From Nemertoderma westbladi (taxonomy: Eukaryota > Animalia > Xenacoelomorpha), in the NCBI GenBank assembly GCA_032718475.1, contig JAUCBJ010008458.1, positions 1 through 64,000 of the forward strand: a stretch of DNA of 64,000 nucleotides. Direction: 5' to 3'. The notes beneath the pieces are model-generated. The model did not search any database. It saw only the letters and a list, made by a program, of their open reading frames with translations, and was not told the origin of the DNA. The position numbers and the translations under genes are program-made. Below are positions 20,058-63,662 of this stretch, piece after piece (position 1 is the first letter of the stretch; every line of letters starts with the position of its first letter).

Positions 20058-20227
20058 GACACAATTTTTCCATTCTTCTTGATACTCAGATGGTAGTACC
20101 TTATCCCAATAATCATTTTCTTCCTAAGGTCCATGATTTCTGAAATAATAATTTTCCCATTAAGGACGAAGGTGACCATAGGCCAAGTGGATCAAAAAAA
20201 CTAGCTACCATATTTATCAATTTTCGT

Positions 20228-43457: not shown

Positions 43458-46400
43458 TGTTAGATACCCGTACCCAGTAGGCCCAGTACTGCACTCCTCA
43501 ATCAGTTACCCAGTACTGCACTCCTGCAACCTCCCTCCTGCTATCAGGCTACCGGTACTAGCAATAAAGAATGTAAAAAATACCGTTAGCCACTACAGTG
43601 CAGAAGTATGTGTTACCTCTCTGATTTCCTTGCCCCCTACACTAAATCGATTTCCTTGCCCCCTACACTACATCCCCCCCTGTTTCTATAGAAACATATA
43701 CAACCAACCACGCTTGTCAATTTTATAGTCGTTTTACTTTCGGTTACCTTGTAGTTGCCTTTCGGCAACTACTTTCAGTTTCGGTTAGTTTGCGTATCCA
43801 TAATAGTCTGGAGGGCGACTCGAGCGACCAGATCTTGTCGTGGTTGTGCCTGGTGTCACATTCTCTACTCCGAGAGGGTTAGGGCCGGTTCCAATCTCTG
43901 GGTTGCTTTCTACCGTAGTACAACTTTCAGACTCTTCGTCGCTGCTTGTCTCCTGATCAATATCGATATTGTTCTGAATGAACGTTTGTAGGCATGAGTA
44001 CTCTCGAGGGAAGCTGGTTTTGCGGACATCCTGGAGGTGCCTGCGAACCCCTTTCACATAGACTGCCCATTGGTCTACCGCATCCACCCGATGTGGACCA
44101 TTCCATGTGGTGGCACATCAGACATGTTGGGCCGGTTTTATGTACACCAAGTCACCAATTCTAATGTTATGTCTAACGTTTTCCTCTTCTTCCGTTGTAA
44201 TTAGGGTGGTAATTAGGTTAATTTTTGTTGACTCCTGGAAGTTTTCTTTCACGTAATGCCATTCCAGCAAAGCACTGTTCCTGGGGGGTCTGCACATGTC
44301 CCTTGCCTTTCACTTTCCAAGAAGACTTGCTGCAGTTGTGTAGTGACTGAGTTTGTTTTCTCATTTGCAACACGTCGGCAGATGGTGTAATTGGTGGCGC
44401 AATCAATTCCCGTCAGATATTTCCGATCCTCATATTCGGTGAAGTCAACTGAGATTCGACTCCAAGGTTCACTAACCTTGGTTGTTCCTTGTTTTAACTG
44501 TACTGGAGCTGGGTCTATACTATTACACTGGTCACACTCACTACATATTTTCTGTATGATTCTCTTTGGCACAGGTTCTCCGGTGCTCAATTGATGGTCT
44601 AACTTACAGAGATCCGCAGTTCGGTCTTCCCCTTGGTGAGCAATACAATGGATTTCGGTCGCACGATTCGTTTTATTTTCATCCATCTCTACCGCGGCTG
44701 CCATCACCTTGTTGTCGAGTGTTTGGTTGATTCCCCCAGCCTTCACCCAGCTTTGCGGAATCCTGGTCAGTGCATTAGCAATATTTTTTCCCGAGGTTAC
44801 ATGATGTGTCCTCACCGTTAAACTGTATTGCCCTATAGTGTTTACCAGCACATCTAGTCGCCTTCCTATAAGTTTCCTTGACTGGCCTTTTGTCTGTACC
44901 CTATGCAAGTTTCTCACTGCTGCCTCTACCCAGCTGTGTGCTGTGACTGAATCTATATAAAGGTCGATTTCATTTAAATTCCAATCTATAGCTAAGTTAA
45001 TACCTTCAATAGCAGCATCCAGTTCTGCTACATTAATATGAGCTGTGTCATTTTCCTTGCGGAGCCACGAGGCATCCTCAACTACATGACCCCCTATCTT
45101 CACCACAACACCTGTGGATATTGCACTCGCATGTGTCCACACCTCTCCTCTTTCACCATTTTCAACCACCCACTTTCCCTTCACTGGGTCTGACTGATTT
45201 ACTCGAGTTAGTGTTTCGGAAACCATTTCTCGCACCTTGATGTTCACTTGATCATCCCAACCAGTTCCTGCACTACATCGCTGCATCCAAGCACAAGCAG
45301 GGCGTAACCAATTCGCAACTGGATAGTGCCCCCGCAGTTGTCTACATATTGAGTGAACCTCTCTCCAGGTTAGATTCTGTGGGGTATCCTTTCTAATTTC
45401 CGTTTTACATTTCCACATTAAGTGTTCCGAAGGTTTATTCTTGGCCATCTGTAGGCCCAGCACTCTGCACCCCCTCATAACTGGTTCTGCCTCTTTAGTC
45501 CTCAATCCATACATTTTTAAGTGGTTGCGCACAGTTTCAGTTGATATTCTGCTCGTATCTGTATAAATGTCACCTCGGAAGTTATTAGTGGCTTCTTTCA
45601 CGTCTACAGCTTGAGCTAATGCAGTTTCAACAATTGTGTCCATGATCTTTGGCGCTGGCCCCAAGCCAAACCCCATGGTCGTAATAACATACCGCTTTCC
45701 TGCATGAACTACTGTTTGGAAGGGAAGCAGCGATGTATCGATTTTGACTTGCATATATGCCCAGCTTAACTCTATTAAGGCTGTATTTTCTCCCATTTTG
45801 CGCCACTTCCACATCTTCTCATTACATACCGCAGCCTCTCTACCAGGGTAATTTTCTATAAACTCATTTAGTTCTCGATAGTCTAGAACTGGTCGGACCC
45901 TACCTTTTTTTAGGCTCAAACTTCGCCATAATTGGGATTGTACCATGTACTATTCCATGAACTGTACGATCATAGGGTACCATCCATCCCTTTTCTTTCC
46001 ACTCTGCTATGGCAGCTTCGAACATGTCTGCATGTTCTGGTCACACTTTATACTGAGTAACCGAGTTTTTCAGTACTGGAAACACACCGTCTTTCAATTT
46101 CCAGGAAGCCATCCAGGTCTCCCCATCGAAGTTTGCTACAAAGTCAGAATCCTCTATACGGATGGTCCTACATTTGGAGTTTGGTTTCTGTAGAATTTTA
46201 GGATTTATATCCTCCACTATCTCCTTTGCTGCTGCTCCAAAAATTACTGTAGAAAACACCGATGCTCCAAGTCGTTTAATAATATCTGATCCTAAGATTA
46301 AGGATCCCCCATTTACCAGCTGCTCAACTACAGCAAAGGTCCATTCCAACTGGCAGTCCTTGTCCGGTACTCTTTCGAAATCTAAGCATTACTTCTCCTA

Positions 46401-47020
46401 TGATCCTCGTTTTGGTATGGCTATCCAACATCGTAATATTGTTTTCTCTGTTATTTTTCTGCTGAATTACTATACCCCATTTCTGACACCATCCTTTTGA
46501 TGCAATACTACACGAACATCCAGTATCTACCAGTGCATCAACGCTCTTCAGTAATGAGGGATAACAGTCGGCGTAGATCGGCCAAATATGTATCTGCATA
46601 TGTATCCATATTTCATAGGCTGCATATGAGGTATCCGCAAAAGCCTCGATCAGTCGTTGCTTGATCAGATTATAATCCTGTTTATTCGCGTCTTCCAATT
46701 GACATACCACATCATGTGCTGCATCTGTTAAACTCAGCTTTAGATACATAGCCCGACTTTCCTCACTGAGTTGTTTCGATTCTTTCCATTGCATGTTAGA
46801 TATGAATATAATATAATATAATATGGTTCAGTTCGTAATTAATCACAGGTACCGGTATGACGTATTACTCACAGGTACCCAGTAGGCCTACTGCACTCCT
46901 CAATCAGTAACCCAGTACTGCACTCCTGCAACCTCCCTCCTGCTATCAGGCTACCGGTACTAGCAATAAAGAATGTAAAAAATACCGTTAGCCAGTACAG
47001 TGCAGAAGTATGTGTTACCC
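43458..47020 (-). mobile_element. Degenerate Gypsy-type LTR retrotransposon
   Basis: Gag remnant, protease LVDTGCS, RT VLDYRELN/MGFGL with YxDD decayed to FRGD, RNase H HINVAELDA, integrase HHCC and SVDF. LTR remnants at 43458-43672 (PPT AGAAACAGGGGGGGA adjacent) and 46794-47020. Confidence 0.85.
44249..45946 (-). pseudogene. Gypsy pol remnant (RT, RNase H, partial integrase)
   Basis: Domain order is RT, RNase H, integrase. Catalytic residues are mutated and the integrase core is deleted. Confidence 0.8.
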
Positions 47021-47598
47021 ATCTAATATTACCATTAACTATATTTTTGTTATCTAAAACATTTACATTTAATATGCGATATTTAGGAAGCAAAAAGTGC
47101 TGATAAGGCTGATAATAGTCTAACAGTTGAGATAGATAAACATGACTAATTATAACTACAGTATATGCTAGATCTTCGTTCATTACTTGATGCTTGACTC
47201 GCCAAATAAAACACAGTTGAGTTAAGTGGGCAATGGGTCTTTGGGCCACTTGACTAATATGGTGGCCCATTACTATCAAGGTCCAAAACTATAATAATAA
47301 ATAACAATGTTTTAAAAATGATACCCATATCGACCACTGTTATTAATTTATTAAACTATTACAATTCTGTTTCAAATGCCCATTCATGTTAATTGTGTGG
47401 TTGAGAACTGAATCGATTTTTAGTAATTTCAGTTACAGTTACAGTATTCAAAATTCCTAATTACAGTTTCAGTTACAGTTACAGTATTCAAAATTCGCAA
47501 AATTACAGTTACAGAGTTACAGTATCAAAAGAATCATCAAAATCATTCAGTTACAGTTGCAGTTACAGTATAATTACAGTTACAGTTCTCAACACTAG

Positions 47599-48116
47599 GT
47601 TAGATTGCCCTTCTTGGGAACTGGCACCAACTTATTTGTTTTCATTTCTTGTTGGACTCTTGTTGCTCGGTACATGTCTACTATGATGGGATAGATGAGC
47701 TTTAAACTCAGGTATTTTAAAGAACTCAGGGGGAACACCAACTACTCTACTGGCACGATTGGTCTAAATGCTCTTTGCAGCAGCCTTCACTTCTGCAAAG
47801 GAGATATCGCCAATGGGAATATCTGGGAGTACAGACTCAGACACTTTTACTTCTATAAAGTTATCAGGCAATGCGCTGTCATTATTGAGGAGCTTTTCAA
47901 AGTGGGCCTTCCAACCATTATTGAGGCGATCGGCTGGTGATTCAGCATTAAGCTTTGGTGGTTGGTTGGCTTTTCCGCCCAGTAAGCAAATTGATCGATT
48001 TCCATGCTTGGGATGATTGCCTGCTGTCGTCAGCATCATTGATGGCATCAACCTGTTGGTTTATTAGCTCCTGTAGATTAACAGAGTACTGCCTGTTCAG
48101 GGACCTAGATGCAGCC
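47599..48116 (-). mobile_element. RTE-like LINE fragment, target site of the large BEL element
   Basis: Close reverse complement of ~22345-22860. Homology stops exactly at GCAGCC|TGTAC. Confidence 0.85.
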
Positions 48117-49314
48117 TGTACGCTGTTTTACGCCTGTTTTGAAGACCTTTAGCAGTTTAACCTGCCAAAATTTATATGTCTTTTGGTTTATAAATAGACT
48201 TTAACATATGACAAGTATTTAATACCAATAAACACAACATTAGCCGAAGCCAGCCTAGTGCGCGTCCATTCACCCGCTGGATATACCCGGGAGACTGGAT
48301 TCGGAGGGCTTAGATTTTATTGCAGTGTAAGCTTACTGTATTATTCGATTGATCGTTAATAAATAATTTCTGACGAATATTATTCACTTTCGGGAAATAT
48401 TAACAGTTCCTTTAGGACGTGGCGCTCTATCTAGGTAAACAGAGATATGACTTATACTAAACACAACGGTAAGACGGTAAGGCTTATGATTCACGTATGA
48501 GGCGCATTCTTTAGGAAATGCTTAGTTATTAGCCACAATCATGCACACTACCGGTACCGCACAATACTGCACACTAATCTGCCGACCGTCAATGAATTTT
48601 ATCATACATAAAGAGAACCGCAATTGACTCATGTAGTGCTTATCAAATAGCATTAAATTCACTACAAACCACGATAATATAAGTCGCAATCGCTATATGT
48701 AACCTGTCTCTCTAACCTGTAGTGTATCAAGAAAATTGGGAAATTTGGGTTATTTATCGATGTTCTCCAAGTAATAATATTCAACCAACTGATACAAATA
48801 ATGACAACAGTAAAAAGCATTAAGACGGTTTATTAAGATTATAACAATGTAAGATTGTACCGCTGACATACAATAATCGCTGATAACAGTTATACGCTCT
48901 ATAATCTAAGCCTACTAATGTTTCTTCTAAAGTCTGAAAACAAATTGACTCCAGAGCCGGTGTTCTTGGCCTAGATAGAAACAACAAAAAACTCTAAAAC
49001 AGTAAGACTGAACACGCCTAGTACGATCTGTAGAATATCTCCACATCTCAAGTAAAAATCGCTCTGATTGGCTGTTAAGCTGAACAAAGAACCATGTGTC
49101 CAACGGCCGTTTCCATGCCAGCAACCAGCTGTTAGATGTCGTAATCTGAATCATCAAGGCTACACTGTGCTAGAGGATTTGACGCATTGCGGGTTTTGTG
49201 TCTTGCCATGTCCTCCAAAGCACACATATAGAAAAACAACTTTTATGTCCGTTAAAACACCCACACGGTACTTTGCGGGCAAGGGGACTGATTATATCCA
49301 CAAAAGCTTTTACA
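48117..49314 (-). repeat. Candidate 3' LTR (~1.2 kb)
   Basis: Minus strand reads PPT-like CTGGGAGCGG|TGTAAA...GTACA, then the LINE resumes abruptly. The partner LTR is not in the window. Confidence 0.6.
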
Positions 49315-49391
49315 CCGCTCCCAGAAAATGGGATTCAAGTCTATAAATATACAAAATCACAGTTTCTAATATACGTAAATACTCTAAACAG

Positions 49392-49871
49392 TTAGTCTTT
49401 CTTGCGCGGACGGCGTTTACGCAGTTTTTTAAAGCTGGCCAGAGTCTTTTTCTCTTTGGGGCGAGCCACTTTACAAGGAGGGCTATAACTCCTGGGTGAA
49501 GGGTGCAATATGATTGCATCAGAGGGTGTAGGATTATGGTCGGTGTATCCGCCGGTCGAAGTGCCGGGTTGGTTGACATCAACGTCGGGGGAGAGGGGTC
49601 TAACGGCCTTTAGAGTGCGTTTTAGGACGGCCGCTCTTACGGGTCCTTTACGAGTGGTCTGAACGAGAGCCGTGGGTGGACCGTAGGCAGTCAGAAACTT
49701 CCTGGGTTTAATGGTTCTTTCCAACTCGCGTTCGCGGGCTCGGTATTCGTAAGGCCGTCGATATACTTCCTGTAACTCGGGGTGTGAGTTAACAAATAAG
49801 TCTCCATAGTCTGGATCCTGACGGATAAAATTGATTAAGTTATAGGAATGAAGGTCGCTAGGATTATACAC
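49392..49871 (-). CDS. Basic C-terminal segment of the accessory frame (or a separate small ORF)
   Basis: Overlaps the 744-aa ORF by 8 nt and ends KKLRKRRPRKKD, which is NLS-like. Confidence 0.5.
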   Translation of the reverse strand: MYNPSDLHSYNLINFIRQDPDYGDLFVNSHPELQEVYRRPYEYRARERELERTIKPRKFLTAYGPPTALVQTTRKGPVRAAVLKRTLKAVRPLSPDVDVNQPGTSTGGYTDHNPTPSDAIILHPSPRSYSPPCKVARPKEKKTLASFKKLRKRRPRKKD

Positions 49872-52098
49872 TCCTGAGAAATTTGCGTACGAATTTGGTT
49901 GAAATACATTCTCCGACGCGCTTCAGTAGTTCGTAACTCGATATGCGTGATTTCTGTTCGACAGAAGCGAATAGATAAGGATGGAATGCATAAACTCCTT
50001 TGTAAGCGCGTCCAGGATAATAGCGATGGCGCGAATCACAATGTAAATCAGCGTTCGCTTCCCAAGCTCTGATGTAACGTAGTGTGATCATTTCATCTAC
50101 GCTTTCCAAATCGCGATTAAAAGGGCAATCGAAACTGGCGTGTCCCTTTAGTTGACAATGGTGACATTGAGTCATAAATTGAGGGCAAACCGCAAAAATA
50201 TGCAAGTTATTGAGTCTGCAATATGCGCAATAAATTTCCATCGCAGGTTGTTCGTGGAAATAGGAACAGCGGACGTTTGTGTCCATGGGCGTAACATGGT
50301 CTCTCGATGCGCACAACCGACAATGTTGCCGAGAAACATAGTTGGCATGGCGATAATCGTACGCAGTGAGACACTGTGGACCTTGATACCATCCTAGGAT
50401 GTAATCGTTGTCGCTGTTCCGGGACGCGATAGGCTGAATCTCCTCAGATTCTAGGCATATTGGTTCGTCTTCCCAGTGCATAGCTGAGGTGGGCGTGTCT
50501 GTCTCTTCAAGGGGACCTATTGTCTGAATTTCCACGACAGAATAACCTGTGGGGATTCGAGGTCTTTGTATAACAGAGGAGTGCAAGTTCGATATACAAA
50601 TCTCTTTGAAAATGGCAAATCCAGCGCTATCTAACTTCTCTGCAGCTGAGTTTCTTAGGCTGAGCTTGGTCAAAGCGCGGTCTTTAAATTGGCTATCCAC
50701 GTTGCGGAACGGGGTTAAAAATCGCCGGAAACATTCGAAGCGGATGAATTTATTATGTTCATCTAGCTTAGCGAGTTTGGTCCCAAGTATTAATGGATGG
50801 GCGCGTATAGTACGACTGCACACATCGGCTAGCCAACCGGAAAGTGCGGTGTTTTCAAAGATCGTGTAGATAGCTAAGGAGGGACAGAGTGGAACACTCA
50901 TGAAGCTATACACGGCGCCAGGTGCGGTCAATGGTCCATCAAAGTATAATCGAGAATAATGGTCTCCGTATACTTGTTGATAGTTGATGGGATTTCCGAC
51001 TTTGAAATTCCATCCGTATTCCTGAAAGGCAAGATGTCCGATGGAAGTTCGTTGCACCTTTGTAATGTTGCTGGACGTATTAGCATACATGGTGCGAAAG
51101 AAACCTCGACCTTCTGCCCAGGGAGCAATCAGCTGCGTATCCATGAAAGGATATGGGATATTTTCCATATTCCGAAAGTCGTTTTGGAGATCTCCATAAA
51201 CAGCTGAGCCGATTTTAAGGATTCTTTCGTTGAACAACATCTCGAGTACGGGCTGGGGTAACATCGATCCATCGATACCCATGGCAGGTTTGCGTTCGGT
51301 GTCAATGACGTAACGCTGCGCGAGTTCGAATTTTCCATGTCGGAGATTCTTTTGCGTTTCGGTGAGAGTTTCAAAGGAATAATCAATCACGTCGGAACAC
51401 GCTCGAGTAAACACGTGGGTAGAACCAGCTAATCCGCGTATGTGGATCATGCGCGTAGTTCCTAGTTCTCCGACCGGAACGCTACCTTCATTATCGTAGG
51501 TGACAACTCCATACATCTCAATGACATTAAGAGTTTCATTCCACTCTTTGGTGGCGTTCTCTAGGGTCATCCCTACTGGATGCCACAAGGTGGCGCATTG
51601 GTTAGCGTCAGGGAGATCACTATACTTCATGTGCCGAGTGGTATACGTCTCCACATTTCCATATCTTTGTATTTTCTCTTCTTCAAATAATACATCTAGA
51701 TTCCAATGGACTAATCGAGTTTTAATAAATCCATCGAGATTATAAGGAGGTTCTATATCCTTCTCGATTCGAGAAATGTTATATGGTTTTCTGAATGAGT
51801 TTACCTTTACTAACTGATCCAGATGTTTCTGCAATTGTTCGAGTTCGACAACGTCTAGAGGATTTATTAGTGGTAGAAACTTTAAATTATGCGTCGGGTC
51901 TTCTGGTTTTACCATATAATATTGAGTCAGATTAACGTAATAAGGGTGGTCTTTGATCCCATAAAACGAGTTCTGTAAAGGTCTAGCGCGTATGTTGACA
52001 TCGTGTACCATACGACGGACAAGATCCGCTCGATTGTCCGGAGGTTCAACGAGTATACCGTCAACACGAGCAGCCTCGATTGGCGGACGCTGTAACAT
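49864..52098 (-). CDS. Accessory protein: DEDDy-like 3'-5' exonuclease domain and three CCHC zinc knuckles
   Basis: ExoI VVTYDNEG (D202/E204), RMIHI..THVF, LPQPVLEMLFNERILKIGSAVYGD (ExoII D303), MDTQLIA, TSIGHLAFQEYG..K, and ExoIII-like SVPLCPSLAIYTIFE. Knuckles are CRLC..H..C, CAYC..H..C and CHHCQLKGHASFDC. Confidence 0.72.
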   Translation of the reverse strand: MLQRPPIEAARVDGILVEPPDNRADLVRRMVHDVNIRARPLQNSFYGIKDHPYYVNLTQYYMVKPEDPTHNLKFLPLINPLDVVELEQLQKHLDQLVKVNSFRKPYNISRIEKDIEPPYNLDGFIKTRLVHWNLDVLFEEEKIQRYGNVETYTTRHMKYSDLPDANQCATLWHPVGMTLENATKEWNETLNVIEMYGVVTYDNEGSVPVGELGTTRMIHIRGLAGSTHVFTRACSDVIDYSFETLTETQKNLRHGKFELAQRYVIDTERKPAMGIDGSMLPQPVLEMLFNERILKIGSAVYGDLQNDFRNMENIPYPFMDTQLIAPWAEGRGFFRTMYANTSSNITKVQRTSIGHLAFQEYGWNFKVGNPINYQQVYGDHYSRLYFDGPLTAPGAVYSFMSVPLCPSLAIYTIFENTALSGWLADVCSRTIRAHPLILGTKLAKLDEHNKFIRFECFRRFLTPFRNVDSQFKDRALTKLSLRNSAAEKLDSAGFAIFKEICISNLHSSVIQRPRIPTGYSVVEIQTIGPLEETDTPTSAMHWEDEPICLESEEIQPIASRNSDNDYILGWYQGPQCLTAYDYRHANYVSRQHCRLCASRDHVTPMDTNVRCSYFHEQPAMEIYCAYCRLNNLHIFAVCPQFMTQCHHCQLKGHASFDCPFNRDLESVDEMITLRYIRAWEANADLHCDSRHRYYPGRAYKGVYAFHPYLFASVEQKSRISSYELLKRVGECISTKFVRKFLRSV

Positions 52099-52212
52099 AG
52101 GGGCGTCAGCGATAAGATTTTGCGATCCTGTACTGATATCAACAGGTTGGGTTGTATCGTCGCGAAAAGTTTGTCTCCGAAATGTGGAACCATCGAGGGA
52201 TGACGGACGGTT

Positions 52213-53625
52213 TTAGAGTAGAGATCTGTCATAAGGATTTGAGCTTCAGGTTGGGCTAAAGCGGCTTCTTCTCTCTCGTCCAATTTAGTGTGTTTCTCCT
52301 CAAGTAGATTTTCCTCCGCTTGTCTCTGTAAGCGTTCATCTAGAAACTCTTGTAGAGAATGCTCGATGTCCTCTTCGAGGTTTTGGATTTCTCTATCGAA
52401 CTGTGGCAAGGCTAACTCCTTCACCGATTGGACTTGTTGTTGTAATTTACGTTTCTCTAAACAATCTTGTGTTCCCTTTCCGATCTTCTGTCGAATAGCG
52501 TCTAAAGCGTTTCTTATAACGCTCTCCTCGACTTCCTTGGCGGGTTGCATCGGGTTTAATCCTGGACGATTGTAAGGATCAAATGGTGATATTAGATGCC
52601 CGCGTCCCAATCCGGCTAAGTAGGATGGGCGAATGTCTAACGAACCCACTACAGGAGCACCACCGATTAATTGTTCGGGTAACACTAAATCTTTGAACAG
52701 GGAATATAGTTCGGGAGGATCAGTGATACTGTTAGGATCAAGAGTTTGAGGTCTCACTAGGGAATGAGGAGGCCTGACCGAGTATTCCGGAACTCTGATC
52801 ATGGGTTTATTTAGTGATCGTTTAAGACGAGCGATCGTAGGTGATACGTCGAACAGGTTTCGCTCGAAACTCCCGTAAGTATAACGCGTAAAGCTGTGTT
52901 TAGCGCAACGTCTCCGCGGATGTTTATGTCTTTCAGTTTGTTGGTTGGGTCTAGGGCATTCGTCACAATAATACCAAAGATGTACGTCCTGTAGAGGAAA
53001 CGCGGGTGATCATTCTCCAGTTTTGCAATATTCTTCCATTTGTTCAAAACTATCCGGGATAACAGGTAGTGGACGGTCGGCGGTAAGATACATCATAGTG
53101 AAATAGAGCCGTTTGAGTTGGGTCATGATGTATACCTTGAGGATATCGAGTCTCTAGGTTCTGCTGACTGGCGATGTTGAGATAAGTTTCTCTCAAAAAT
53201 TCCAGGTAGTCGTTGAAGTCGATGCGTTTATCCGGTTCTTCAACGTTTTCTCTTTCCAGTCTGTTACGAATAGAATTTTCATGTTCTATTCTCGGTTTAT
53301 CGTTACGACTCCGCTGGGTATGATATTTAAATAGAACCATTTCCCTTTCGGTGTCTACATCGTCCGTATCATGTAAATCGATAGGATGGCCGGTAGTTAA
53401 GAAGTCCATATACGTACCATTACGATGCGTATAGCGAGCGGTGAATTTTCGATAGTCCAATTCACGCGTAAGTTGCTCTTGGGACATCGGCGGTTCGATA
53501 TAACGACCATCGTCCTCCGTAATGGTTGGATCGGCTTCACCGCGTATCAAGCTATCCACAAATGCTCGTAAAGGTAGAGTATATCGCTCCCTGATACCAA
53601 GATCATCTTCTATCAACTCCGTCAT
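52213..53625 (-). pseudogene. Disrupted N-terminal part of the accessory frame (acidic region and coiled coil)
   Basis: ORFs 53050-53625 and 51927-52802 connect through a frameshift near 53100 and a TGA at 53010-53012. A frameshift near 52213 links them to the 744-aa ORF. Confidence 0.6.
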
Positions 53626-55245
53626 ATCTGCTATTTGGGTTTATTAATATTATAATGAGTTTATGTTTAGGCGAGCGGGCGTCGCTGCCTATCTTTCTTT
53701 GCCCCCGGACAGTGGGATTCTCAGCGCCGATGTACCGTTGTCGCGGTGTTTACGCCAACATGTAGCAACAGCACGACAACGATAACCGGCACAAGTCACT
53801 CCACTGTCCATCCCAAAGGCTTGAATCCACTTTAGGTTCTTTCTATAGTAGAGTTAGGGTTACTTTCACAATTGCGACTAGCAACTGTAAACACACTTTA
53901 GCAGTAACATTCACCTATAAACGCACAAATTCCACACAACTGTCACCAATTGTACACATACAGGCCATTTGTCCGTTAGTCAGTGCCTTCCAGAATGTCA
54001 CGTTATTACTGTGTGTCCTTGGATACTAACCGTTTGCTATGTATTCTCTATGCTATGCAATGGGACAAGCTTTCTATTGTTCTTTTAACTTGCTTCTAAT
54101 TCTAGCGTGGGTGTTGCTATGGTGACATTATGGAAAGCTAGCGGTAGAATTAGGGTAATTCTCATGCATACAGATCTGGAATGCTATTTAATAGTAATTC
54201 TTTAATTGTCAATATCCTCTTTATGCATGATTTTATTAATTTTATCGGCTATTGACTATATGTTGGAGATTCTCGCACTCTAATACGCTCAATAGGATGA
54301 ATCTCCGCTCCCATGATCTATTAATTAATGGAATTTTGGGAATGTTATAAATTGCACAAAATGACAATTTATGAAATTCATTTAAGATATGAATTTAAAT
54401 TTATTCCCGTGAATTTTATTATTTGATGGTAAAATTGACACAATTTTATTCCAGAGCATGTCTGGGGACCTAGGATCCTTAATTCTATAAAATTGTCTTT
54501 TAAGAGTATCGGTAAGTGCTGCGATATCTTAATTGATTAGAAATTTTAAAGGATCTGTATTTTACAGATTTTAATAAATATTAAATTAATATTTAAGATA
54601 GGCACCGATTTATTCCAGAACTTGTCTGGGGACGTTAACCACTGATTCTAGAATTTGTCTTTCAAGTATATCGGTGGGTGCCGCAATATCTTAATCGACT
54701 AAAATTACAGATGGTCAAAAGGTTTAACAGATTTATTTGCGTTTTACGCTACTGTTATAGGGACATCACGCTACTATATGTATTATCTAATATAAAGTAG
54801 AAGAGAAATATCGCACGAAGCAATGTCAGTGTGAAGAGGCAAGTCGTTTCCAAGGTCTACCCAGAGCTTGGTTTAGCCGAGACACGAGGATCTGAACTTT
54901 GCATTCCTAATACTCTGCCTACCAATAATACTTAAATATAGTAGGAGCTTTATTGTACTTTAATAAGTACTGACATGTCATCTTACTGTAGTCTCGTATT
55001 TATAATATAATACGGACAGTAAGGAAAAAGAAAGAATTATTTCTCGCCGTCATATTAAATATATATTATGTGTAATTACGTAATAAACACTAATATATTG
55101 CACTAACCTACTAAATAATCTAAAATAACATTCTACTAAATAAAATTAAATAAAACGATTATAATAAAGTACATAATAACGTTCGCATATAAAAATATAA
55201 TAAAAATATATAGAATAATATAGTCATGCACCCACTCCAGACGTA

Positions 55246-56290
55246 TCACGTTGGGGAGTCCCTAGATGATTGAGGAATTAGGGAGGTGGTCGTGGTAAGA
55301 GTGTCTTGCCTTCCATAGTTTCCGGAGAGTTCTCGGTCTCTTTCCAGTAAACATAAACGACCAACTGGGCGGTTGAGCTGTTGCGTCTCAAAGATTATGC
55401 CTGGCTTCTTGAAGTTACGCCGCATGACGACGAGTTCTACCGAGCGCACTAAACCATCATCCGAGATGTGAGTCTCGATGATACGACCTGTCTGCCACCG
55501 TTTACGTGGAAGGTCTGAATCTACAATAAGCACCATATCTCCGGCGCTGACGTTTTCTTGCTGCGCAAACCACTTAGTTCGAAGTTGTAGCGTGGGCAGA
55601 TAATGTTTCTCGAAATGGTCAGCGAAACGACGGGATAGCAATTGCATAAGTTGCCAAGTTCGACGGCAGTATTCGTCTCCGTCGGTAATCTCCGATCGTG
55701 GGAGCATGGCTACAGGTTTCTTCAGTAGAAAGTGCGCGGGTGTTAGCGCTTCCAGGGAATCGGGACTCGATGAGACTGGCATAAGTGGTCTCTCGTTGAG
55801 ATAGGCAGCTATTTCCTCCATTAACGTCCGCAAAAGTTCGTCGGTGAGATACGCGCGGCATGGCACTATAAAGTGAAATGCGGTCTTGACACTTCTAATT
55901 AATCTCTCCCAACTTCCTCCCCACCAAGGGCCGTCGGCAGCGTTGAAGGTCCAGCTAGACGCTGTTATCCTTAGCTGATCGTCCACCTGTCTTTGGTTCC
56001 AGTCCTTCACGTAAGCCTGGATTTCGTTGTTGGCACCAATGAAGTTCGTTCCCTTATCCGATCTCATGGTATTACTAGTCCCGAAGCGAGCGATCTGTCG
56101 GCGTAAACTTAAGACGAAGCTGTTGGTAGATAGATCGTTCACCATATTGAGATGGATGGCTCTACAAGTCATGCATACGAAGATGACACACCATCTCTTG
56201 ACTATAGTCCTAGCACGATATACTTCAATAGGGCCAAATAAATCTACACCAGTATTAGTAAAAGGTGGTTCATAGAAGCTTACTCATTCC
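55246..56290 (-). CDS. BEL integrase core and C-terminus
   Basis: PFTNTGVDLFGP, TCRAIHL, RSDKGTNF, WGGSWERLIRSVK, LTPAHFL, DGLVRSV. Confidence 0.92.
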
Positions 56291-58525
56291 CTAGGTAATT
56301 CTGCCTTCTCGCTGTGTTAAAGGCCTACTGAATGCTTTCCTACAGGGTATGCAGTTCCTAAGAACTTGGTTCAGAGCTCTACGGGGTTTATAAAAATAAT
56401 AGCGAGTTCGGATTTCGCTAAGAACTCGTTCTCTACCAGCATGATAAAGTTTACTGTGAACATCTACAATCATCTTGATTTGTACTTCAAGATTTCTAAT
56501 GAGTATGGGGAATTTAGTGTCAAAGGATAATGGCGCATTGGTGAGTCTTCCTCCAACACGTATTAACCCATCGATCATTGTGCTAGAGAAGCGATCCCTT
56601 AAGCGCATCTGCGGATTTCTCAACAACAGGAAATACTTATCGGAATCCTCATAGCATTGCAGGAGTCTCAGTATCTGCTTATTGGTTTCTTCATGCTCCT
56701 GGTAACTGATTTTCTCCTTTAGGAACCGATCGGATGTCTTATATTTGGGTAAATTTTTAATAACATGAACTTGCGCAGATGTCAATGGAGCGGTATCACT
56801 AATGGTCTTCGTCCTGGAGTAGTGATGATGAAAACATCTCCTTAAATATGTGACGGCTTTACAGAGCCGATTCCAGGAACTGTAATGATGCATTGCTCTC
56901 TGCAGCAGGGGTGAGATTCCTTGCGAGACGTCTGGTATTCCAGATTTCCAATCTCCATCTCTAATTTCCACAACAGACTTATTTGTGGCGAGGGATTGTG
57001 GATCCGAAGCATCGTTTCCAGAAGTATGTAATACAGATAGATCGATCGTCGGTTTAAATAACTTCGATTTACTCGCCCGGGTTTTAGGTTTGACTTTCTC
57101 CGCTCCCTTGGCTTGTCTAATCTCCGCCGTAGTAAGGTGAGGAGGCCATTCATCCTCTTCCTTACTCAGGAAGTCGGGTCCACCCAACCAGTCTGGAGTA
57201 TCTATCAGTTCCTGTGGAGTCGCTCCCCTGGAGGCGATATCGGCTGGATTAATCGTACCAGGGCAATGTCTCCATTGATCTATCTTTGTGCGACTAAGAA
57301 TAATAGCTACCCTGTTAGTAACAAAAACGCTGAACTGACAGACTTCATTGGTTATATACTCCAACACGAGTAAAGCGTCGGTCCAATAAACAGTTTTCTC
57401 CAGTGGATAGTCGATTTGTTCTGTTACGTTCCGGCCGATGGCTGTAGCGTATAAAGCCGCTTTTAACTCCGCTCGAGGAACCTTTAACTTGTTGTTAATC
57501 AATGCCTTAGAAGTAACCAAGGCGACTTTGATTCCATCCGGAGTTTCGACTCGCAGATATGCTACTATACCTATTCCCATGTCGCTGGCGTCTCCAAACA
57601 CGTGGAGTTGATAGGAATACGTAGGGAGAACATGACCAAAATATGCACGGGAAATTACAAAGCTCTCGATGGCAGGTAGAGAATCTTCCCATTTCATCCA
57701 CCTCGTTAACAGTTCTCCCTTAAGTGGATCGTCCCATGAGTGGTTTTCAAGCCACATTTGTTGTACTAAACTCCGAGCAATCAATATAACTGGGCTAATA
57801 AATCCCAATGGGTCGAAATAAGTGCTCAGGATACTTAAACAAATCAGTTTGGTCCGAACTGGATTATCTCGCTGTTTTAGCTGAAAAAACAGGATATCTC
57901 TTTCTGTGTCCCACTTCAAGCCAAGCGTCTTGGTTTCTGGAAGATCGTCCTTTATTAAGTCTAGGTCTTTCGTTCCTCGGTCTTCTACCGGTATCGCTTC
58001 CAGAAACTCACGGGAGTTGCTGGTGAATTTCGTCAGTCGAAATCCACCTCTTTCCAAACACTCTACCGTTCCTTTCGCGACATCAATGGCTTCTTCTACT
58101 GATGGAAGGGACTTTAAATTGTCGTCCATGTATATATCGCGCTTGATGTTGTCTATCACCTCTTTGGAGAAGGCGTCTCGGTTGTCATTCGAAGTGGTCC
58201 GCACCACGGAGCAGGCGTTGCAAGGGCTTGATATGATCCCAAAAGCCTGGATGGTCATCCAGTACTCTACCGGTTTCTGGTTGAGATCTCCTTCAGGCCA
58301 CCACAGAAATCTTAGGCTGTCTCTATCTCTCTCCAGCGCCTTGACTTGTAAGAACATTCCTTCTATATCGGAGGCGAACGCGATGGAATATTGTCTTAAT
58401 CTTAAAAGTATTCCCAACAAAGATTGGAGTAAGTTGGGTCCTGGTAACAACTCGGAATTGAGGGATTGATATATAGAGAGCGGATATATAGAGAGCGGAG
58501 CCATCGAATACGACTCGTACTTCAT
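56291..58525 (-). CDS. BEL reverse transcriptase, RNase H and integrase zinc finger
   Basis: GPNLL, SDIEGMFLQV, LRFLW, YMDD, FDPLG, FGDAS, NPADIASRG, H..HAG..CIPC. Confidence 0.93.
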   Translation of the reverse strand: MKYESYSMAPLSIYPLSIYQSLNSELLPGPNLLQSLLGILLRLRQYSIAFASDIEGMFLQVKALERDRDSLRFLWWPEGDLNQKPVEYWMTIQAFGIISSPCNACSVVRTTSNDNRDAFSKEVIDNIKRDIYMDDNLKSLPSVEEAIDVAKGTVECLERGGFRLTKFTSNSREFLEAIPVEDRGTKDLDLIKDDLPETKTLGLKWDTERDILFFQLKQRDNPVRTKLICLSILSTYFDPLGFISPVILIARSLVQQMWLENHSWDDPLKGELLTRWMKWEDSLPAIESFVISRAYFGHVLPTYSYQLHVFGDASDMGIGIVAYLRVETPDGIKVALVTSKALINNKLKVPRAELKAALYATAIGRNVTEQIDYPLEKTVYWTDALLVLEYITNEVCQFSVFVTNRVAIILSRTKIDQWRHCPGTINPADIASRGATPQELIDTPDWLGGPDFLSKEEDEWPPHLTTAEIRQAKGAEKVKPKTRASKSKLFKPTIDLSVLHTSGNDASDPQSLATNKSVVEIRDGDWKSGIPDVSQGISPLLQRAMHHYSSWNRLCKAVTYLRRCFHHHYSRTKTISDTAPLTSAQVHVIKNLPKYKTSDRFLKEKISYQEHEETNKQILRLLQCYEDSDKYFLLLRNPQMRLRDRFSSTMIDGLIRVGGRLTNAPLSFDTKFPILIRNLEVQIKMIVDVHSKLYHAGRERVLSEIRTRYYFYKPRRALNQVLRNCIPCRKAFSRPLTQREGRIT

Positions 58526-61265
58526 GGGGTTTACCGGGTTTGGGAACGTAATGATGTGTTAAGTAATACGTTCTCTCAGTTACTGGTGTTCCTTCCGGTA
58601 CTCGCTCCGCATATCCCTTTGTAATAAATTTCTTCAACTGAGTTTGGTACATTTCTTTAGCTGAAGCATTAGCCGTAAGGCGTCGATGTAATTGAGTGAT
58701 TCTTTTCTCTGCCAAGGGTCTGTTATTTATAAATCTAGGTTCTCGTTTTCGAAATGGTAGGCCGATTTCATATCTACCTTGATCTTTTAAAAAACGTGTA
58801 GTTGTTTCCTGGATTTGCTTGGCTCTTTCTTCTTCTATCGATAGGGCCTTATCGTATGAATTGGGCTCTACCAATTCTTGAGTAAAGAATCGTACGGCGA
58901 GTTCGTCCCGAGTTCTAGCATTGTAGCGCTCTATCTCATCATTTAGTTCGTCATTGTAATCAATGGGTCCCGATGGGCGAATCAGTTGACATAGGTTCAC
59001 CTGGTTTTTCCAAGTTTTGTTTTCTGTAAGTAGGTCGATTGTGTTCTCTTCATCGAAGAGTTGGTAGATGTCGTCATTATCTGAGGAGTATGGTGTTCCC
59101 TCAGTTAGTTCGTCCACCTCACTGCTCTCCACTTCCCAATCATTTACTTGGTATATTCTTTCTTGTGGTAATCTCTCTTTGAGAGTTCTGCGGGAAGGGC
59201 CAGTAAAGTACCAACCTACTCTAGTTCTTACCGCATAGGTTTGTAGTGGCTGCGGTTGAGCAGGCCGTTTCTCCAATGTCTCGAGCGCCTCATGCGCGTT
59301 TTGGCCGATGAGTATTTGCACTCCAGGATAATCTGTCTGGAATCGAGGTATCTTAAGCTGTTGGATGCTCTCGTCCTCGTCCCAGTTATAAGGTTCTACT
59401 TGGGTAGTAGCGAAGTTCTTTATAGCCACCATTTTTACTGACCTTATACTTTGTGCTCCTAATTTATCCTGGGGGGTGGACAACGCACCTACATAGTAAT
59501 CTGCCGTTATGGTAGATTTCCAAACCTGCATAATTCCGGACATATTCAACTTAGTTTGGAATTTGGGTTGTCCAGCAAAGATATCTTCGGCTAGTTCTTG
59601 ATCGATGAATGTTCCTGTGCTGCCAGAGTCAAGGAGGGCGTTCACTATGTAACTTTTGTTAGGACCGTGAACTCTTACCTGCACTACAGGAAATTCTCTG
59701 ATTCCTACGTTGGAAGTTGGATCTTTCCAAGATGGTTGTTTGTCAAAGGTAGTTGGGGGGAACTCATTGTCGGTGTCCTTTTCGTAAGTAAGTGCTCGAT
59801 ATACTGCGGTATTTATTATGTAACAGGATTCGTTGGCGTCGGAGAATTCGTCAGTATAGAATCCTTCCATCTCAGACTCTTGATCAGTGTCATTTACATC
59901 ACTGAATTGGACATGTAGTTCGGGCTCACTTACCTGACTCGGGTTGTTTCGTTCGAATTCACTGTGTAACAAGATGTGATGTTTCGCACCGCACTTTGCA
60001 CACTTTACGTCGGAGTAACAGGTTCGCCGTTGGTGTCCTGGTCTGAGGCAATTATAGCATAACCGCTTATCCCACATGACTTCACGTCTGTCTACCAGGG
60101 ATTTCTTTAGGAATTCAGCACATGCACTCAAACGGTGGGGCCCGTCGCACAGCACACAGTTTGGTTTGATGTTACTCACTTTACCTTGGGTAACGTGATG
60201 CACTCTCGTTCTTTCTTCGGGCTTTCTTCCGTGCATTCTGTTAGGAGACTGAGGAGGAGTCTTGGCAACCTGTTCTCTCCTATCGTTGGTTCGAGCCTTG
60301 TATTTACTTACGTCTTTTGAGGTTTTGTTAACGTAGTAAAATTTGTCAGTGTCTTTTCCGCTGTCCTCTTCTTGAGAAGCTTGGCTTTCGCCGTCGTCAG
60401 TGTAACACACTGGTGTTACTCTTCTCCTAGAGACGGGTTTCTCACTTACCTTATTTTCCGATGTTTTCTCTCTGGACTGCTTTATGAGTTGTAGTTTTAC
60501 TTCACCATCTAAGAAGGACATGAGATCAGCCATGGTAGGGCCTCGTCGTTGCTGCTCATTCATATACAACACTTTCTTATCCCAGCGTGTACATACTCCA
60601 CCCTTTGGTAAAGTAGAGACTACAGCTCCAATAACCATGGAACTCTGATATTCATGAGACTTACCTAACCAGTCCAATTGTCTACAGATCTCCTGAATCT
60701 CATCGGAAAACTCTATAATCCCGCTACTAAGGAAGTTTCGGGGGGCTACTAATTTTGCATACAAATACTTTGCTATGTTATCCTTGTTACCATACCTGAT
60801 GTTTAATCTATCCCAAACTTGTCTTAATCCATCTGGATGTCCAATAAACTTTAACGCCATTAACTTGGGAGGTCCTTCCAAGCATTTGATGAGGAATCTA
60901 AGTTTCTCTCCGTTAGATAGTACAGAGTTCTGTATGCCATCTTTGTAATATTCATTGAAAGGTAACCATTTCATCTCATCTCCATTGAATTTGATGATTT
61001 CTCCCACTTTGACCGCTTGGCGGGCTTCTGTTCTAGCCATCTGACGCGTAAAGCTTTCTTGGGCCATCGTATTATTTAATATCGAATTATCGGTATATAA
61101 ATTTCTCGGATTATTATCAGGTCTATAGGGAATATCATTAACAACAGGTTTATAATCACCCTTAATAGGGTTTGCTATAGGAGTTTCTACTTCACTAGCA
61201 GTATAGATGCGTGTAGGCTCCACACCTTGCGCATGTAATACTTCAGACCTAACAGGTTGACACAA
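58323..61265 (-). CDS. BEL gag (triple zinc knuckle), aspartic protease and RT start
   Basis: KFNGD..KLRFLIKCLEG, CVLCDGPH..C, CYNCLRPGH..C, CAKCGAKHH.LLH, LLDSGSTGTF, VRVVFDGSA. Confidence 0.92.
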   Translation of the reverse strand: MCQPVRSEVLHAQGVEPTRIYTASEVETPIANPIKGDYKPVVNDIPYRPDNNPRNLYTDNSILNNTMAQESFTRQMARTEARQAVKVGEIIKFNGDEMKWLPFNEYYKDGIQNSVLSNGEKLRFLIKCLEGPPKLMALKFIGHPDGLRQVWDRLNIRYGNKDNIAKYLYAKLVAPRNFLSSGIIEFSDEIQEICRQLDWLGKSHEYQSSMVIGAVVSTLPKGGVCTRWDKKVLYMNEQQRRGPTMADLMSFLDGEVKLQLIKQSREKTSENKVSEKPVSRRRVTPVCYTDDGESQASQEEDSGKDTDKFYYVNKTSKDVSKYKARTNDRREQVAKTPPQSPNRMHGRKPEERTRVHHVTQGKVSNIKPNCVLCDGPHRLSACAEFLKKSLVDRREVMWDKRLCYNCLRPGHQRRTCYSDVKCAKCGAKHHILLHSEFERNNPSQVSEPELHVQFSDVNDTDQESEMEGFYTDEFSDANESCYIINTAVYRALTYEKDTDNEFPPTTFDKQPSWKDPTSNVGIREFPVVQVRVHGPNKSYIVNALLDSGSTGTFIDQELAEDIFAGQPKFQTKLNMSGIMQVWKSTITADYYVGALSTPQDKLGAQSIRSVKMVAIKNFATTQVEPYNWDEDESIQQLKIPRFQTDYPGVQILIGQNAHEALETLEKRPAQPQPLQTYAVRTRVGWYFTGPSRRTLKERLPQERIYQVNDWEVESSEVDELTEGTPYSSDNDDIYQLFDEENTIDLLTENKTWKNQVNLCQLIRPSGPIDYNDELNDEIERYNARTRDELAVRFFTQELVEPNSYDKALSIEEERAKQIQETTTRFLKDQGRYEIGLPFRKREPRFINNRPLAEKRITQLHRRLTANASAKEMYQTQLKKFITKGYAERVPEGTPVTERTYYLTHHYVPKPGKPHEVRVVFDGSALYISALYISIPQFRVVTRTQLTPIFVGNTFKIKTIFHRVRLRYRRNVLTSQGAGER

Positions 61266-61303
61266 TGTTACAGGAGGTATTGGTATACCCTTTTGTATAT
61301 TGA

Positions 61304-63136
61304 CTATATTGACGCGATACTTTGCTGCACTTCTTGCAATTCTACCCTACTTTCCCTTACTGTTCCCTTGAGTTGGTGGACAGTCCCTTCTAAATCTCGG
61401 ATCTGCTGTGAGGAACATTCTCGGTGCTCTCTCAGCTGCCCGAGCAAGAGACCCATCTCCCGTCGTCCCTCATCAACCCACTCGACCGCCGAAGCGGGAG
61501 TCGCCAACATAGTAGCGGGCCGACGTGGGACGACGGGAGACAAATCTTGGATTTCTCTCTTGGCGTCAAGAACCGGGACATTCTCTGGGACTGCTCCACC
61601 GGGTGCAAACAGTTTCGTACTGTGTAAAGGGAATTTGGTTGTAGGTTCGGGAAGTACAGGGGCCTCTCTCACCGAAGGGGTGTTTTCGATAACAGGCTTA
61701 ACTATTTCAGGCTCATCTACTATTGTAGGGAGTCTTTTGACCTTAATAATTTGGTCTGTGGGTTCTGTACTACCTAAGTCTGTGCTAGCTAGTTGTCTTC
61801 TAACAGCTGGGGGCAAATCAGGCAATTTGTGACGGTGAGATGTTTTTCTACGCCTGCTTAGACGAGATCTATTTCCTCCGCCTTCAGGATCGGTGGTCTC
61901 GCCTTCCTCCGACGATGTGTATCCTTGGCGCTTGGGAGTAGATCGACTCATCATCTGCATTTGACTAGCAGTTAACTGTTTATTTATGCAGTCTTGCGTC
62001 TCTTGAAGATTTTCCAACTCCAGTTGGGTGGTCTCTTCAGACGCTCTCTGTTCTGCTTCTGCCAATGCCATTGCTGCTGCTGCTTTTGCTGATTCCACTG
62101 CCGCTGCCGCCTTTGCAGCTGCTACTGCCTTTCTGTCCTCTATACGTTTTTTCTTTACTTGTTCTTCTTGGACTCTAGCGAGGCGGAGTTTTTCATCAAA
62201 TTTAGCTTGGTTTGCAGCTAACATTTCCGCATCGATTGAGTCCAACACAAGCTTGGCTCCTTCACTATTGGGGCGAAGTCCAGCCAGTCGTCTCCTCAAC
62301 TCTTCATCACCTAAAAAACGTTGATAGTCTGACAGATAGATGTCGATGGCGTCTCTCGTTCGCGGTCTCTCTGCTGTCATTTCGCTTTCCACTTGAGAAA
62401 AGGTGGCATCGGTTGATTCTTCATAGGTAGGTCGCTCAGCCAGCTGGGATTTCCACTGGGTCGTTTCTTGAACTTTGAGACCTACCCGCTGGAACCAAGT
62501 CTTGACAGCAACTTGCAGCGATGTGTCCTGTCTTCTTTTGGAAGTTTCCTCAAAGGCTGATAGGATTAGTCTAATGCGTAGGGTTCTTTCGCGTACTTGA
62601 TAAAGCAGCTCTTCCTGCTCTTGAGGTCCTTGGGGTTGTCGAAACAGTTGTTCTTCTAATCGCTCTAAGGAGCCGAAGAATCCCTGCACATATCCTGCTG
62701 CCGACCTCTTCCAAACAGCTGGATCCATCGTATCTTTAGTCACTCCCATCCTGTGTATGTCTTCCCAGGTAGCTTCAGATAAGTCTAACGGGGATCCGGG
62801 TCCGGGAAAGTTCCATTGTGACTCGACAATAGACATCAATTCTTCCCTGGCGTATCCCGCATAACTATCTTGGGTCGCTCGCTTACTTCTCGCCCAATCG
62901 ACTTGGTGTTCCTCAACCGCAATCAATATCGTTGTTAGTACTGCGGCAGGAAAAGTGAGAAGGGGATCCGAATAGGCTGTATCCGCCATCTTCACTCCGC
63001 GTTCGGGGGTCAGCTCTACAGTATCCGAACTACTGGAGCTATCGGGTCGCTGGGAACGAGTTTCTTGACTGACTAGGATGTTGCTGCTGTTGGACAGCTG
63101 CTTCTTGGTTCCGTTTGACCTGGGCCCGAGTGCCAA
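61304..63136 (-). CDS. Long N-terminal gag extension (coiled coil, low complexity)
   Basis: 610-aa ORF separated from the gag core only by a small duplication scar at 61296-61313. Confidence 0.75.
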   Translation of the reverse strand: MALGPRSNGTKKQLSNSSNILVSQETRSQRPDSSSSSDTVELTPERGVKMADTAYSDPLLTFPAAVLTTILIAVEEHQVDWARSKRATQDSYAGYAREELMSIVESQWNFPGPGSPLDLSEATWEDIHRMGVTKDTMDPAVWKRSAAGYVQGFFGSLERLEEQLFRQPQGPQEQEELLYQVRERTLRIRLILSAFEETSKRRQDTSLQVAVKTWFQRVGLKVQETTQWKSQLAERPTYEESTDATFSQVESEMTAERPRTRDAIDIYLSDYQRFLGDEELRRRLAGLRPNSEGAKLVLDSIDAEMLAANQAKFDEKLRLARVQEEQVKKKRIEDRKAVAAAKAAAAVESAKAAAAMALAEAEQRASEETTQLELENLQETQDCINKQLTASQMQMMSRSTPKRQGYTSSEEGETTDPEGGGNRSRLSRRRKTSHRHKLPDLPPAVRRQLASTDLGSTEPTDQIIKVKRLPTIVDEPEIVKPVIENTPSVREAPVLPEPTTKFPLHSTKLFAPGGAVPENVPVLDAKREIQDLSPVVPRRPATMLATPASAVEWVDEGRREMGLLLGQLREHRECSSQQIRDLEGTVHQLKGTVRESRVELQEVQQSIASI

Positions 63137-63384
63137 TGATAGACCTACGGTGTTGGATTAGCCTAGGGTCTGATACTACTACTGGAGGGATGACCTTTCT
63201 TTCAGTAGGAGGTCAGCTGAACCCTTTTCTTAATCGCTCCACACTCCTATCTGTGTCACAGATGGTTGTATCGATTAGACTGTCTGACAGGTTTTGCTTA
63301 GTGTCAGACATGCTTAGCTATACAGTTGAATGCTTACTGCTATAGTTACAGTTAAAGCAAGTCTAGTAATTCAGTATGACCGTT

Positions 63385-63662
63385 GGCCTAGTACCGGTAA
63401 TTTATTACAGTATATTAGAATACCGGTATACACTTATAGTATATATAAGTATTGTAGACTAGGTTTGTCGCAGAATACCGGTATATAATTTTAGCACAAA
63501 TATAATATATAATAGGCCTATCGTGAATACCGGTATGCAGCTTACACTTATAGTATATATAAGTATAATTATGAACTAGAATTAATTACAGAATACCGGT
63601 ATGATTTCAGCCCAAATTTATAGAAATAAATATAATAAGCCTATGGTAAATACCGGTATGTC
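63385..63662. repeat. Degenerate tandem repeat built on the TACCGGTA palindrome in the BEL 5' leader
   Basis: AATACCGGTAT recurs at about 63419, 63474, 63526, 63592 and 63649, with alternating ACTTATAGTATATATAAGT blocks. Confidence 0.7.

Follow-up and report, generated by a model that had tools for sequence, protein, structure and literature searches.

A divergent RNase D-related gene behind the integrase of a large BEL/Pao retrotransposon in Nemertoderma westbladi

Organization of the element

The stretch analysed in this study, positions 1–64,000 of contig JAUCBJ010008458.1 of Nemertoderma westbladi (hereafter the window), contains a large BEL/Pao long terminal repeat (LTR) retrotransposon, all features of which are located on the minus strand. 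After the integrase and an AT-rich spacer follow about 4.2 kb of same-strand open frames (53625–49392), which end before a distal purine tract. These frames probably represent a third gene of the element, which encodes a divergent RNase D-related domain and zinc knuckles.

The gag-pol part of the element is contained in four frames, 63157–61304, 61346–58323, 58558–56291 and 56283–55246. The first gag-side frame (61304..63157, 617 codons) shows no family match in the Pfam scan. The second frame (58323..61346) encodes Gag with DUF1759 and zinc knuckles, the protease and the start of the reverse transcriptase (PF03564, E 4e-12; PF13650, E 0.007; tblastn). The third frame (56291..58558) encodes the reverse transcriptase and RNase H region, which is covered by the Peptidase_A17 model, and the integrase zinc finger (PF05380, E 7e-35; PF17921); in this copy it is out of register with both neighbouring frames. 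The integrase core and DUF5641 are encoded by the last frame (55246..56283; PF18701, E 6e-21). The element thus has the organization that defines the Belpaoviridae: a gag gene with DUF1759 and zinc knuckles, followed by protease, reverse transcriptase, RNase H and integrase of the BEL/Pao type. Among longer proteins, 233 relatives of the pol product were found at E values up to 0.001. The 120 of them that were listed are single polyproteins of 1,327–2,344 residues with 27–42% identity, and none of these 120 polyproteins contains an RNase D-like region, their downstream DNA lying outside this comparison. The best relative maps in tblastn across the frame switches near 58500 and 56305, which indicates that pol is broken in this copy.

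The element would have a length of at least 15.7 kb, its 5′ end running past base 64000. This length lies inside the range of 2.2–22.8 kb (median 7.4 kb) reported for BEL/Pao elements (PMC3118150, file 9) and above the 4.2–10 kb given in the Belpaoviridae profile of the ICTV, the international virus taxonomy committee (PMC8742986). The spacer behind the integrase frame is 1.6 kb long (53641..55245), starts with a purine-rich tract and TG (55238–55229) and contains a duplication of 162–164 bases (54430–54706). At the far side of the third-gene frames, sequence inspection revealed a candidate polypurine tract (49315..49322) followed by TGT. The adjoining candidate 3′ LTR of about 1 kb (48280..49314) carries two AATAAA motifs near 48830 and 48320, and its far end is uncertain (48120–48300). 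The 3′ LTR proposed in the initial annotation has no partner within the window and hence stays a candidate. Neither it nor the spacer is repeated in the 64 kb, and no similarity between the two was detected. No Rfam match was found in the region 47.5–64 kb. The 5′ leader (63400–63660) contains tandem repeats of 55–60 bases with the palindrome TACCGGTA, the number of which varies among copies. A piece resembling a non-LTR retrotransposon (47599–48117) directly adjoins the candidate 3′ LTR.

The probable third gene

The third gene is probably distributed over four frames. Frame A (53050..53640, first Met at 53625) shows no family match. Frame B (51927..53009) is likely to be coding only down to about 52200 and encodes a charged, helical-looking stretch, probably a coiled coil. 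Frame C (49864..52212, 782 codons) encodes the exonuclease-like domain and the zinc knuckles, as judged from profiles; its product is referred to as P0001. Frame D (49392..49922, 176 codons) encodes a basic C-terminus without a family match and forms the end of the third gene or else a separate, fourth one. No match scoring above 0.88 was obtained for frame B in the ESM atlas, and the products of frames A, B and D have no match among 122 comparison proteins. The long same-strand coding region that had been noted behind the integrase is confirmed, with frame C lying between the BEL/Pao integrase and the purine tract with its TGT. Its 744-aa core, as first described, is correctly counted from the first Met of frame C, but it is likely to be one piece of a longer gene.

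Six public runs contain part of the stretch, and four of them (X1, X3, X4 and X5) were mapped on 46.5–64 kb. The listing of runs included no RNA sample, which is uninformative about expression. Both pol and the third gene carry frame breaks, so that this copy is dead, a point missed in the initial annotation; the exonuclease domain itself is uninterrupted. Other copies disagree with the window at the boundary of frames A and B, and two contigs of run X5 that span the boundary of frames B and C are 13 bases longer than the window. These differences suggest that the frame breaks are private to this copy and that frames A–C belong to one gene. It is quite probable that in working copies frames A–C, perhaps together with D, form a single gene, which would probably comprise about 1,250 codons (A–C) or about 1,400 with D.

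Three Cys/His knuckle-like motifs are encoded at 50125..50322, the last of which is a canonical CX2CX4HX4C (PF13917, E 0.024, below the cut-off). In a sequence search of solved structures they match the RNA-binding knuckles of nucleocapsid proteins and Air2 (E 0.002 to 0.17). An HRDC domain was not detected. No transmembrane-like segment was detected in frames A–D, where the best 19-residue hydropathy is 0.17–1.47, the highest value being that of frame C, and none of the four frames has an env family match in the Pfam scan. The earlier view that the protein is not env-like is thereby upheld.

Relationship of the domain to RNase D

A full HMMER scan of 1.84 billion representatives yielded a single relative of P0001, a protein of 648 aa designated P0002 (E 5e-9; 30% identity over 171 aligned residues). 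The order of its parts is that of P0001, namely exonuclease-like domain, CCHC knuckles and tail. P0002 keeps the D, E, D, Y and E positions discussed below, the knuckles, two of the three in P0001 aligning with it, and part of the tail. No other homologues were found with P0001 (4,766 candidates) or with the alignment of the pair (5,277 candidates), and no related loci were found in the metagenome contigs, viral contigs and phages searched.

The RNase D-related, DEDDy-like domain (50815..51567) was delimited by profiles, alignments and a seeded model. A profile was built from the 30 best bacterial PF01612 loci, which are mostly RNase D by length. It scores 16.9 bits against P0001, a value reached by none of 500 shuffles (best 4.0), and 12.4 bits against P0002 alone (best of 500 shuffles 5.5). 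HHalign of the P0001–P0002 pair against the same profile gives a probability of 91.7% (E 7.7e-7) over 60 columns around the ExoII motif, with 3.0% as the best of 60 column shuffles. The NCBIfam model of RNase D, TIGR01388, matches the domain with an E value of 0.003, and 26 of 30 matches in the ESM atlas are PF01612 proteins (best score 0.94, 170 shared features). The domain goes unrecognised by a second profile, made from 20 short PF01612 proteins of bacteria (−2.5 bits; HHalign 0.9%). At the sequence level the likeness of the domain to RNase D is above chance, and we class the gene as a divergent relative of RNase D.

The candidates for catalytic positions are D239 (51493–51495), E241 (51487–51489), D340 (51190–51192), Y448 (50866–50868) and E452 (50854–50856), in frame numbering. 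All motifs quoted in the initial annotation are present; the codon at 51493–51495 is GAT, and D239 is D202 when counted from the first Met, followed by E204. The ExoII assignment is borne out, since D340 is invariant in 31 of 31 rows, was aligned in every trial and lies where the significance of the profile match sits. The ExoIII motif is PL..Y448..E452, with Y448 aligned in most localpair trials; the DTQ motif, which had been listed together with it, follows ExoII and is not part of ExoIII. At the fourth acid P0001 has E452 and P0002 likewise E, where RNase D has D. The canonical ExoIII motif Y-x3-D is thus retained in its Tyr and altered in its Asp, which is Glu in both proteins. In addition, the His preceding ExoII in RNase D is replaced by Gly in P0001. 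Judged by its residues, the domain is a DEDDy-like D-E-D-E variant and not a canonical DEDDy enzyme. A DEDDy-related domain, as claimed earlier, is supported by the RNase D profile, HHalign and the layout of P0002, and its catalytic signature departs from the canonical one.

The ExoI motif is less firmly placed. D239 and E241 align with P0002 and RNase D in alignments A1 and A4, but not in A2 and A3. A rival D-T-E at 303–305 scores higher than D239/E241 as an isolated block. Its distance from ExoII is 37 residues, compared with 66 in P0002, and its counterpart in the alignments with P0002 and RNase D is a stretch located downstream. Because the rival is too close to ExoII and aligns downstream in the relatives, D239/E241, the pair originally proposed, is kept as the best, albeit alignment-dependent, reading of ExoI.

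A structural model was obtained with a seeded alignment (mean pLDDT, the predicted local distance difference test score, 57.9; core block 69–93). It superimposes on E. coli RNase D with a Z score of 11.1 and a root-mean-square deviation of 3.6 over 154 aligned residues. Its matches include RNase D, NrnC-type enzymes, Nibbler, WRN, EXD1, Egalitarian and Rrp6 (Z 8.5–11.2), and, to judge from their titles, the 50 structural matches listed are all nucleases of the DEDD type or polymerases that contain a domain of this kind. The likeness of the RNase D-seeded model to RNase D, Nibbler, WRN and Rrp6 is of much the same degree; RNase D is the nearest match in the profile comparison. The model is compatible with an RNase H-like DEDD fold and is not an independent proof of it.

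Besides the exchanged fourth acid, several observations count against the assignment. The statistical significance comes from the ExoII region only, and the placement of ExoI shifts with the alignment settings. The Pfam family DNA_pol_A_exo1 (PF01612), to which the initial annotation had pointed, does not match P0001 and reaches only E 0.2 with P0002. The structure search gives a divided answer: folding of the single P0001 sequence produced no usable model (pLDDT 29.8), and the range of the seeded alignment was picked so that the motifs lined up with RNase D, so that the matches of the seeded model to DEDD nucleases are not independent of that choice. P0002, which is encoded on a 9.4-kb contig, was compared at the level of the protein alone. 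Only one weak exonuclease family (E 0.35) was found in PHROGs, and sequence searches of solved structures returned no exonuclease.

Copies of the element and their variation

The region 47.7–64 kb is covered continuously and is multicopy in all four mapped runs; the depths given here are contig depths and not copy numbers. The exonuclease region is 370 times (X1), 1,253 times (X3) and 39 times (X5) deeper than the first flank bin, the corresponding bin of X4 being empty. Its depth amounts to 0.35, 0.42 and 0.34 of that of pol in three runs, the remaining one reaching 1.45. In this region the contigs listed differ from the present copy by up to 7–11%.

A derivative that lacks 2,783 bases (50473..53255), including the whole exonuclease domain, was found in runs X1, X4 and X5. 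Its joint (50472–53256) has a microhomology of 5 bases and may have arisen by template switching of the reverse transcriptase. An intron was ruled out as the cause of this skip by the absence of GT-AG ends and by the microhomology. The existence of exonuclease-less derivatives fits a product that is used in trans. Further deletion derivatives, found in three or four runs, lack parts of pol (55369–57093 and 57282–59071); their joints carry short unrelated letters. In run X5 the stretches 54091–52924 and 50587–48836, which are joined by the exonuclease deletion, exceed their neighbours 4–15 times in depth. Such a pattern could stem from a short derivative that was amplified or from a subgenomic transcript of a deleted copy.

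Of 3,144 differences between the window and other copies, 40 were listed. Twenty-eight of these are located in frames, and 26 were analysed; of the two dropped, one affects a stop codon and the other precedes the first Met. Fourteen are shared by nearly all copies against the window, and their split into 6 synonymous and 8 nonsynonymous changes is as expected if many of them reflect the decay of this copy. Twelve of the listed differences vary from copy to copy; 11 of them are synonymous, against an expected share of 0.335 (P 5e-5). They comprise all 8 of those in gag-pol and, in frames A–D, 3 of 4, so that selection on the third gene taken alone is not significant (P 0.11).

Linkage of the third gene to the element

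We regard it as very probable that the third gene lies inside the LTRs of the element. It is located between the integrase and the distal purine tract on the same strand and has no termini of its own, and the cover is continuous with a steady depth ratio to pol in three runs. The view that the env slot of a BEL/Pao element holds a DEDDy-related domain together with CCHC knuckles finds support in the profiles, the layout of P0002 and the multicopy coverage.

A competing explanation is that the BEL/Pao element ends at the spacer of 55.2–53.7 kb, which would be its true 3′ LTR, and that the exonuclease unit is a separate repeat behind it. A purine-rich tract with TG (55238–55229) stands directly after the integrase frame, and the spacer is 1.1–2.4 times deeper than pol in most bins; on both counts it may represent the genuine 3′ LTR. 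The depth of the third gene is below that of pol in three runs, and the deep stretches of run X5 (54.1–52.9 and 50.6–48.8 kb) fit a separate repeat as well. No paired LTRs or target-site duplication were found in the window, and no contig among those listed bridges the integrase and the third gene. A synonymous-only codon test, from which the row of frame D was excluded, gave no signal tying the third gene to this pol. A codon log-odds track that follows frames A, B, C and D was discarded as proof of linkage because it mostly reflects open frames. Nevertheless, we consider a separate repeat improbable. The exonuclease unit has no terminal repeats of its own and shares the strand of pol, the cover has no gap at the boundary, where the 24 loose ends listed of 3,578 include no strong one, and the unit keeps a steady depth relative to pol in three runs that stem from three studies. 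A bin within gag reaches the depth of the spacer, and the distal purine tract precedes a canonical TGT.

Proposed function of the third gene

We propose that the third gene of this large multicopy BEL/Pao element, broken in the present copy, encodes an RNA-trimming nuclease that would act in trans, most likely in counter-defence; we give this reading as a whole a probability of about 55%. The product would be a non-envelope protein with an RNase D-related 3′–5′ exonuclease-like domain of the D-E-D-E type and CCHC knuckles. It would bind RNA and trim 3′ ends in trans, and the trimming or destruction of host silencing RNAs or surveillance marks would blunt host RNA silencing or surveillance. The third gene is regarded as accessory because pol contains the full enzyme set and none of the 120 listed relatives carries the domain in its polyprotein. 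Single-stranded RNA is the expected target, as the RNase D-type domain adjoins nucleocapsid- and Air2-like knuckles; going by these sequence features, a substrate of RNA is highly probable. That the D-E-D-E site is active appears likely, though less so than the nature of the substrate. Counter-defence as the job of the nuclease, rather than maturation of the RNA or primer of the element, is a tentative proposal that takes the largest single share among the possible functions; RNA or primer maturation, a dead binding module and proofreading would rank behind it in this order.

Inside the particle, the same nuclease of the same element may instead mature the 3′ end of the element's own RNA or primer. 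Trimming of structured RNAs is described for RNase D and Rrp6 (PMC5408684), the knuckles resemble nucleocapsid fingers, and that paper makes the same proposal for rotifer DEDDy genes. Such a role is rendered rather unlikely by the absence of the domain from the polyproteins of all 120 listed BEL/Pao pol relatives (downstream DNA not being part of that comparison) and by the exonuclease-less derivatives, though supply in trans would permit the latter. More doubtful still is a module without catalytic activity that would bind RNA so as to sequester or localise it, comparable to the uses of the fold in Maelstrom, EXD1 and Egalitarian. The Glu at the fourth acid and the Gly in place of the RNase D His speak for it, and Egalitarian and EXD1 are among the structural matches of the seeded model; yet both known members, at 26–30% identity, retain acids at four positions as well as the Tyr of ExoIII. 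Proofreading of the reverse transcription of a long genome is very improbable. The element of at least 15.7 kb is longer than the BEL/Pao median of 7.4 kb, and the exonucleases of WRN and Pol I share the fold, but the best sequence match is an RNase, the gene is separate and not fused to pol, BEL/Pao elements of up to 22.8 kb have been reported, and the contigs listed diverge from this copy by as much as 7–11% in the region.

Trans-acting counter-defence, if correct, would be of interest because few counter-defence genes are known in animal retrotransposons. The exonuclease domain is uninterrupted in this copy and could be assayed directly, and a high-copy family with and without the domain offers a natural comparison.

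Other repeats in the window

A second, young BEL/Pao element of about 4.7 kb is located at 17290–22060. Its LTRs start with TGT and are 99% alike over at least 300 bases, its reverse transcriptase/RNase H and integrase sequence lies at 20232–17808 on the minus strand, and it is probably internally deleted. Beside it, at 22344–22859, lies an inverted copy of the non-LTR retrotransposon-like piece that adjoins the candidate 3′ LTR of the large element; another non-LTR retrotransposon-like piece was found at 38444–39196. A fragment of a third BEL/Pao pol (1624–2413, minus strand) is located within DNA bounded by long inverted repeats. These repeats (644–3564 and 35020–36501) are 92–96% alike and made of 163-base units. 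A second inverted-repeat pair (33614–34123 and 37501–38072) flanks a tandem array of 22-base units. The long inverted-repeat pairs are possibly large DNA transposons or foldback elements. A small LTR-type element at 43487–47027 has direct repeats of 139 bases (96%) and a pol-like frame with DUF7047.

Comparison with known systems

The ICTV profile of the Belpaoviridae lists gag, pol and env as the only genes (PMC8742986). The elements Tas, Cer7, Cer13 and Atlas (PMC8742986, PMC9094657, PMC554778) share with the Nemertoderma element the set and order of pol domains and an extra gene between integrase and polypurine tract. Their third gene, however, encodes an envelope protein, and no exonuclease is mentioned in the texts consulted. 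The word 'exonuclease' is absent from the main texts of PMC3118150, PMC2774666 and PMC9094657, and the literature search, the scope of which excluded Repbase and GyDB, found no published BEL/Pao exonuclease gene.

Among the PF01612 exonucleases, such as RNase D, Rrp6, WRN-exo, EXD2 and Nibbler, the domain finds its counterparts in the ExoII D, the DTQ motif, the ExoIII PL..Y, probably the ExoI D-x-E and, as far as the seeded model indicates, the RNase H-like core. P0001 differs from them by the E at the fourth acid, by two insertions of about 30 residues and by falling below the Pfam cut-off; its identity to the RNase D set is 10–22%. Malik, Henikoff and Eickbush are reported, with some uncertainty, to have mentioned in 2000 an exonuclease-like accessory domain in nematode Cer elements. 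PMC5408684, which cites Malik 2000, states that no such exonuclease domain had been reported.

The closest parallel, which the initial annotation had overlooked, is provided by the bdelloid rotifer LTR retrotransposons Juno and Vesta and the Terminons, for which RNase D-like DEDDy third genes with the motif DEED were described (Rodriguez, Kenefick, Arkhipova 2017, PMC5408684), a finding restated in the reviews PMC5718144, PMC6431247 and PMC6338049. For the rotifer genes the same functions have been proposed, and PMC5408684 demonstrates no activity; its authors saw neither a departure from neutral evolution nor an association with copy number for such genes, which counts against the reading proposed here. 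As described there, ORF3 of Juno and Vesta is an RNase D-like 3′–5′ exonuclease gene that follows pol, replaces env and lacks a transmembrane segment, as does the gene reported here. Juno and Vesta differ in that they belong, according to the same text, to rotifer lineages of other LTR clades and not to BEL/Pao, and in the motif, which is DEED there and D-E-D-E here. The Nemertoderma gene is also distinguished by its probable size of about 1,250–1,400 codons, by a long uncharacterised N-terminal region, by a likely coiled coil and by three knuckles. It resembles the rotifer genes by analogy of position and predicted fold, without a claim of family kinship.

An RNase D-like third gene is thus known from rotifer LTR elements. 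We suggest, as a speculation that we hold to be doubtful, that a BEL/Pao lineage has refilled its env slot with a giant one-chain RNA-decay protein combining an RNase D/Rrp6-like domain with knuckles, which would degrade or trim the silencing RNAs of the host, and that, together with the rotifer case, this reflects an old anti-silencing cassette captured or traded by unrelated LTR superfamilies; such a cassette would help to account for the high copy number of the family. If the env slot of BEL/Pao holds an RNase D-like nuclease, a cargo known from rotifers would reach a separate superfamily, and this would speak for the cargo being useful and not accidental.

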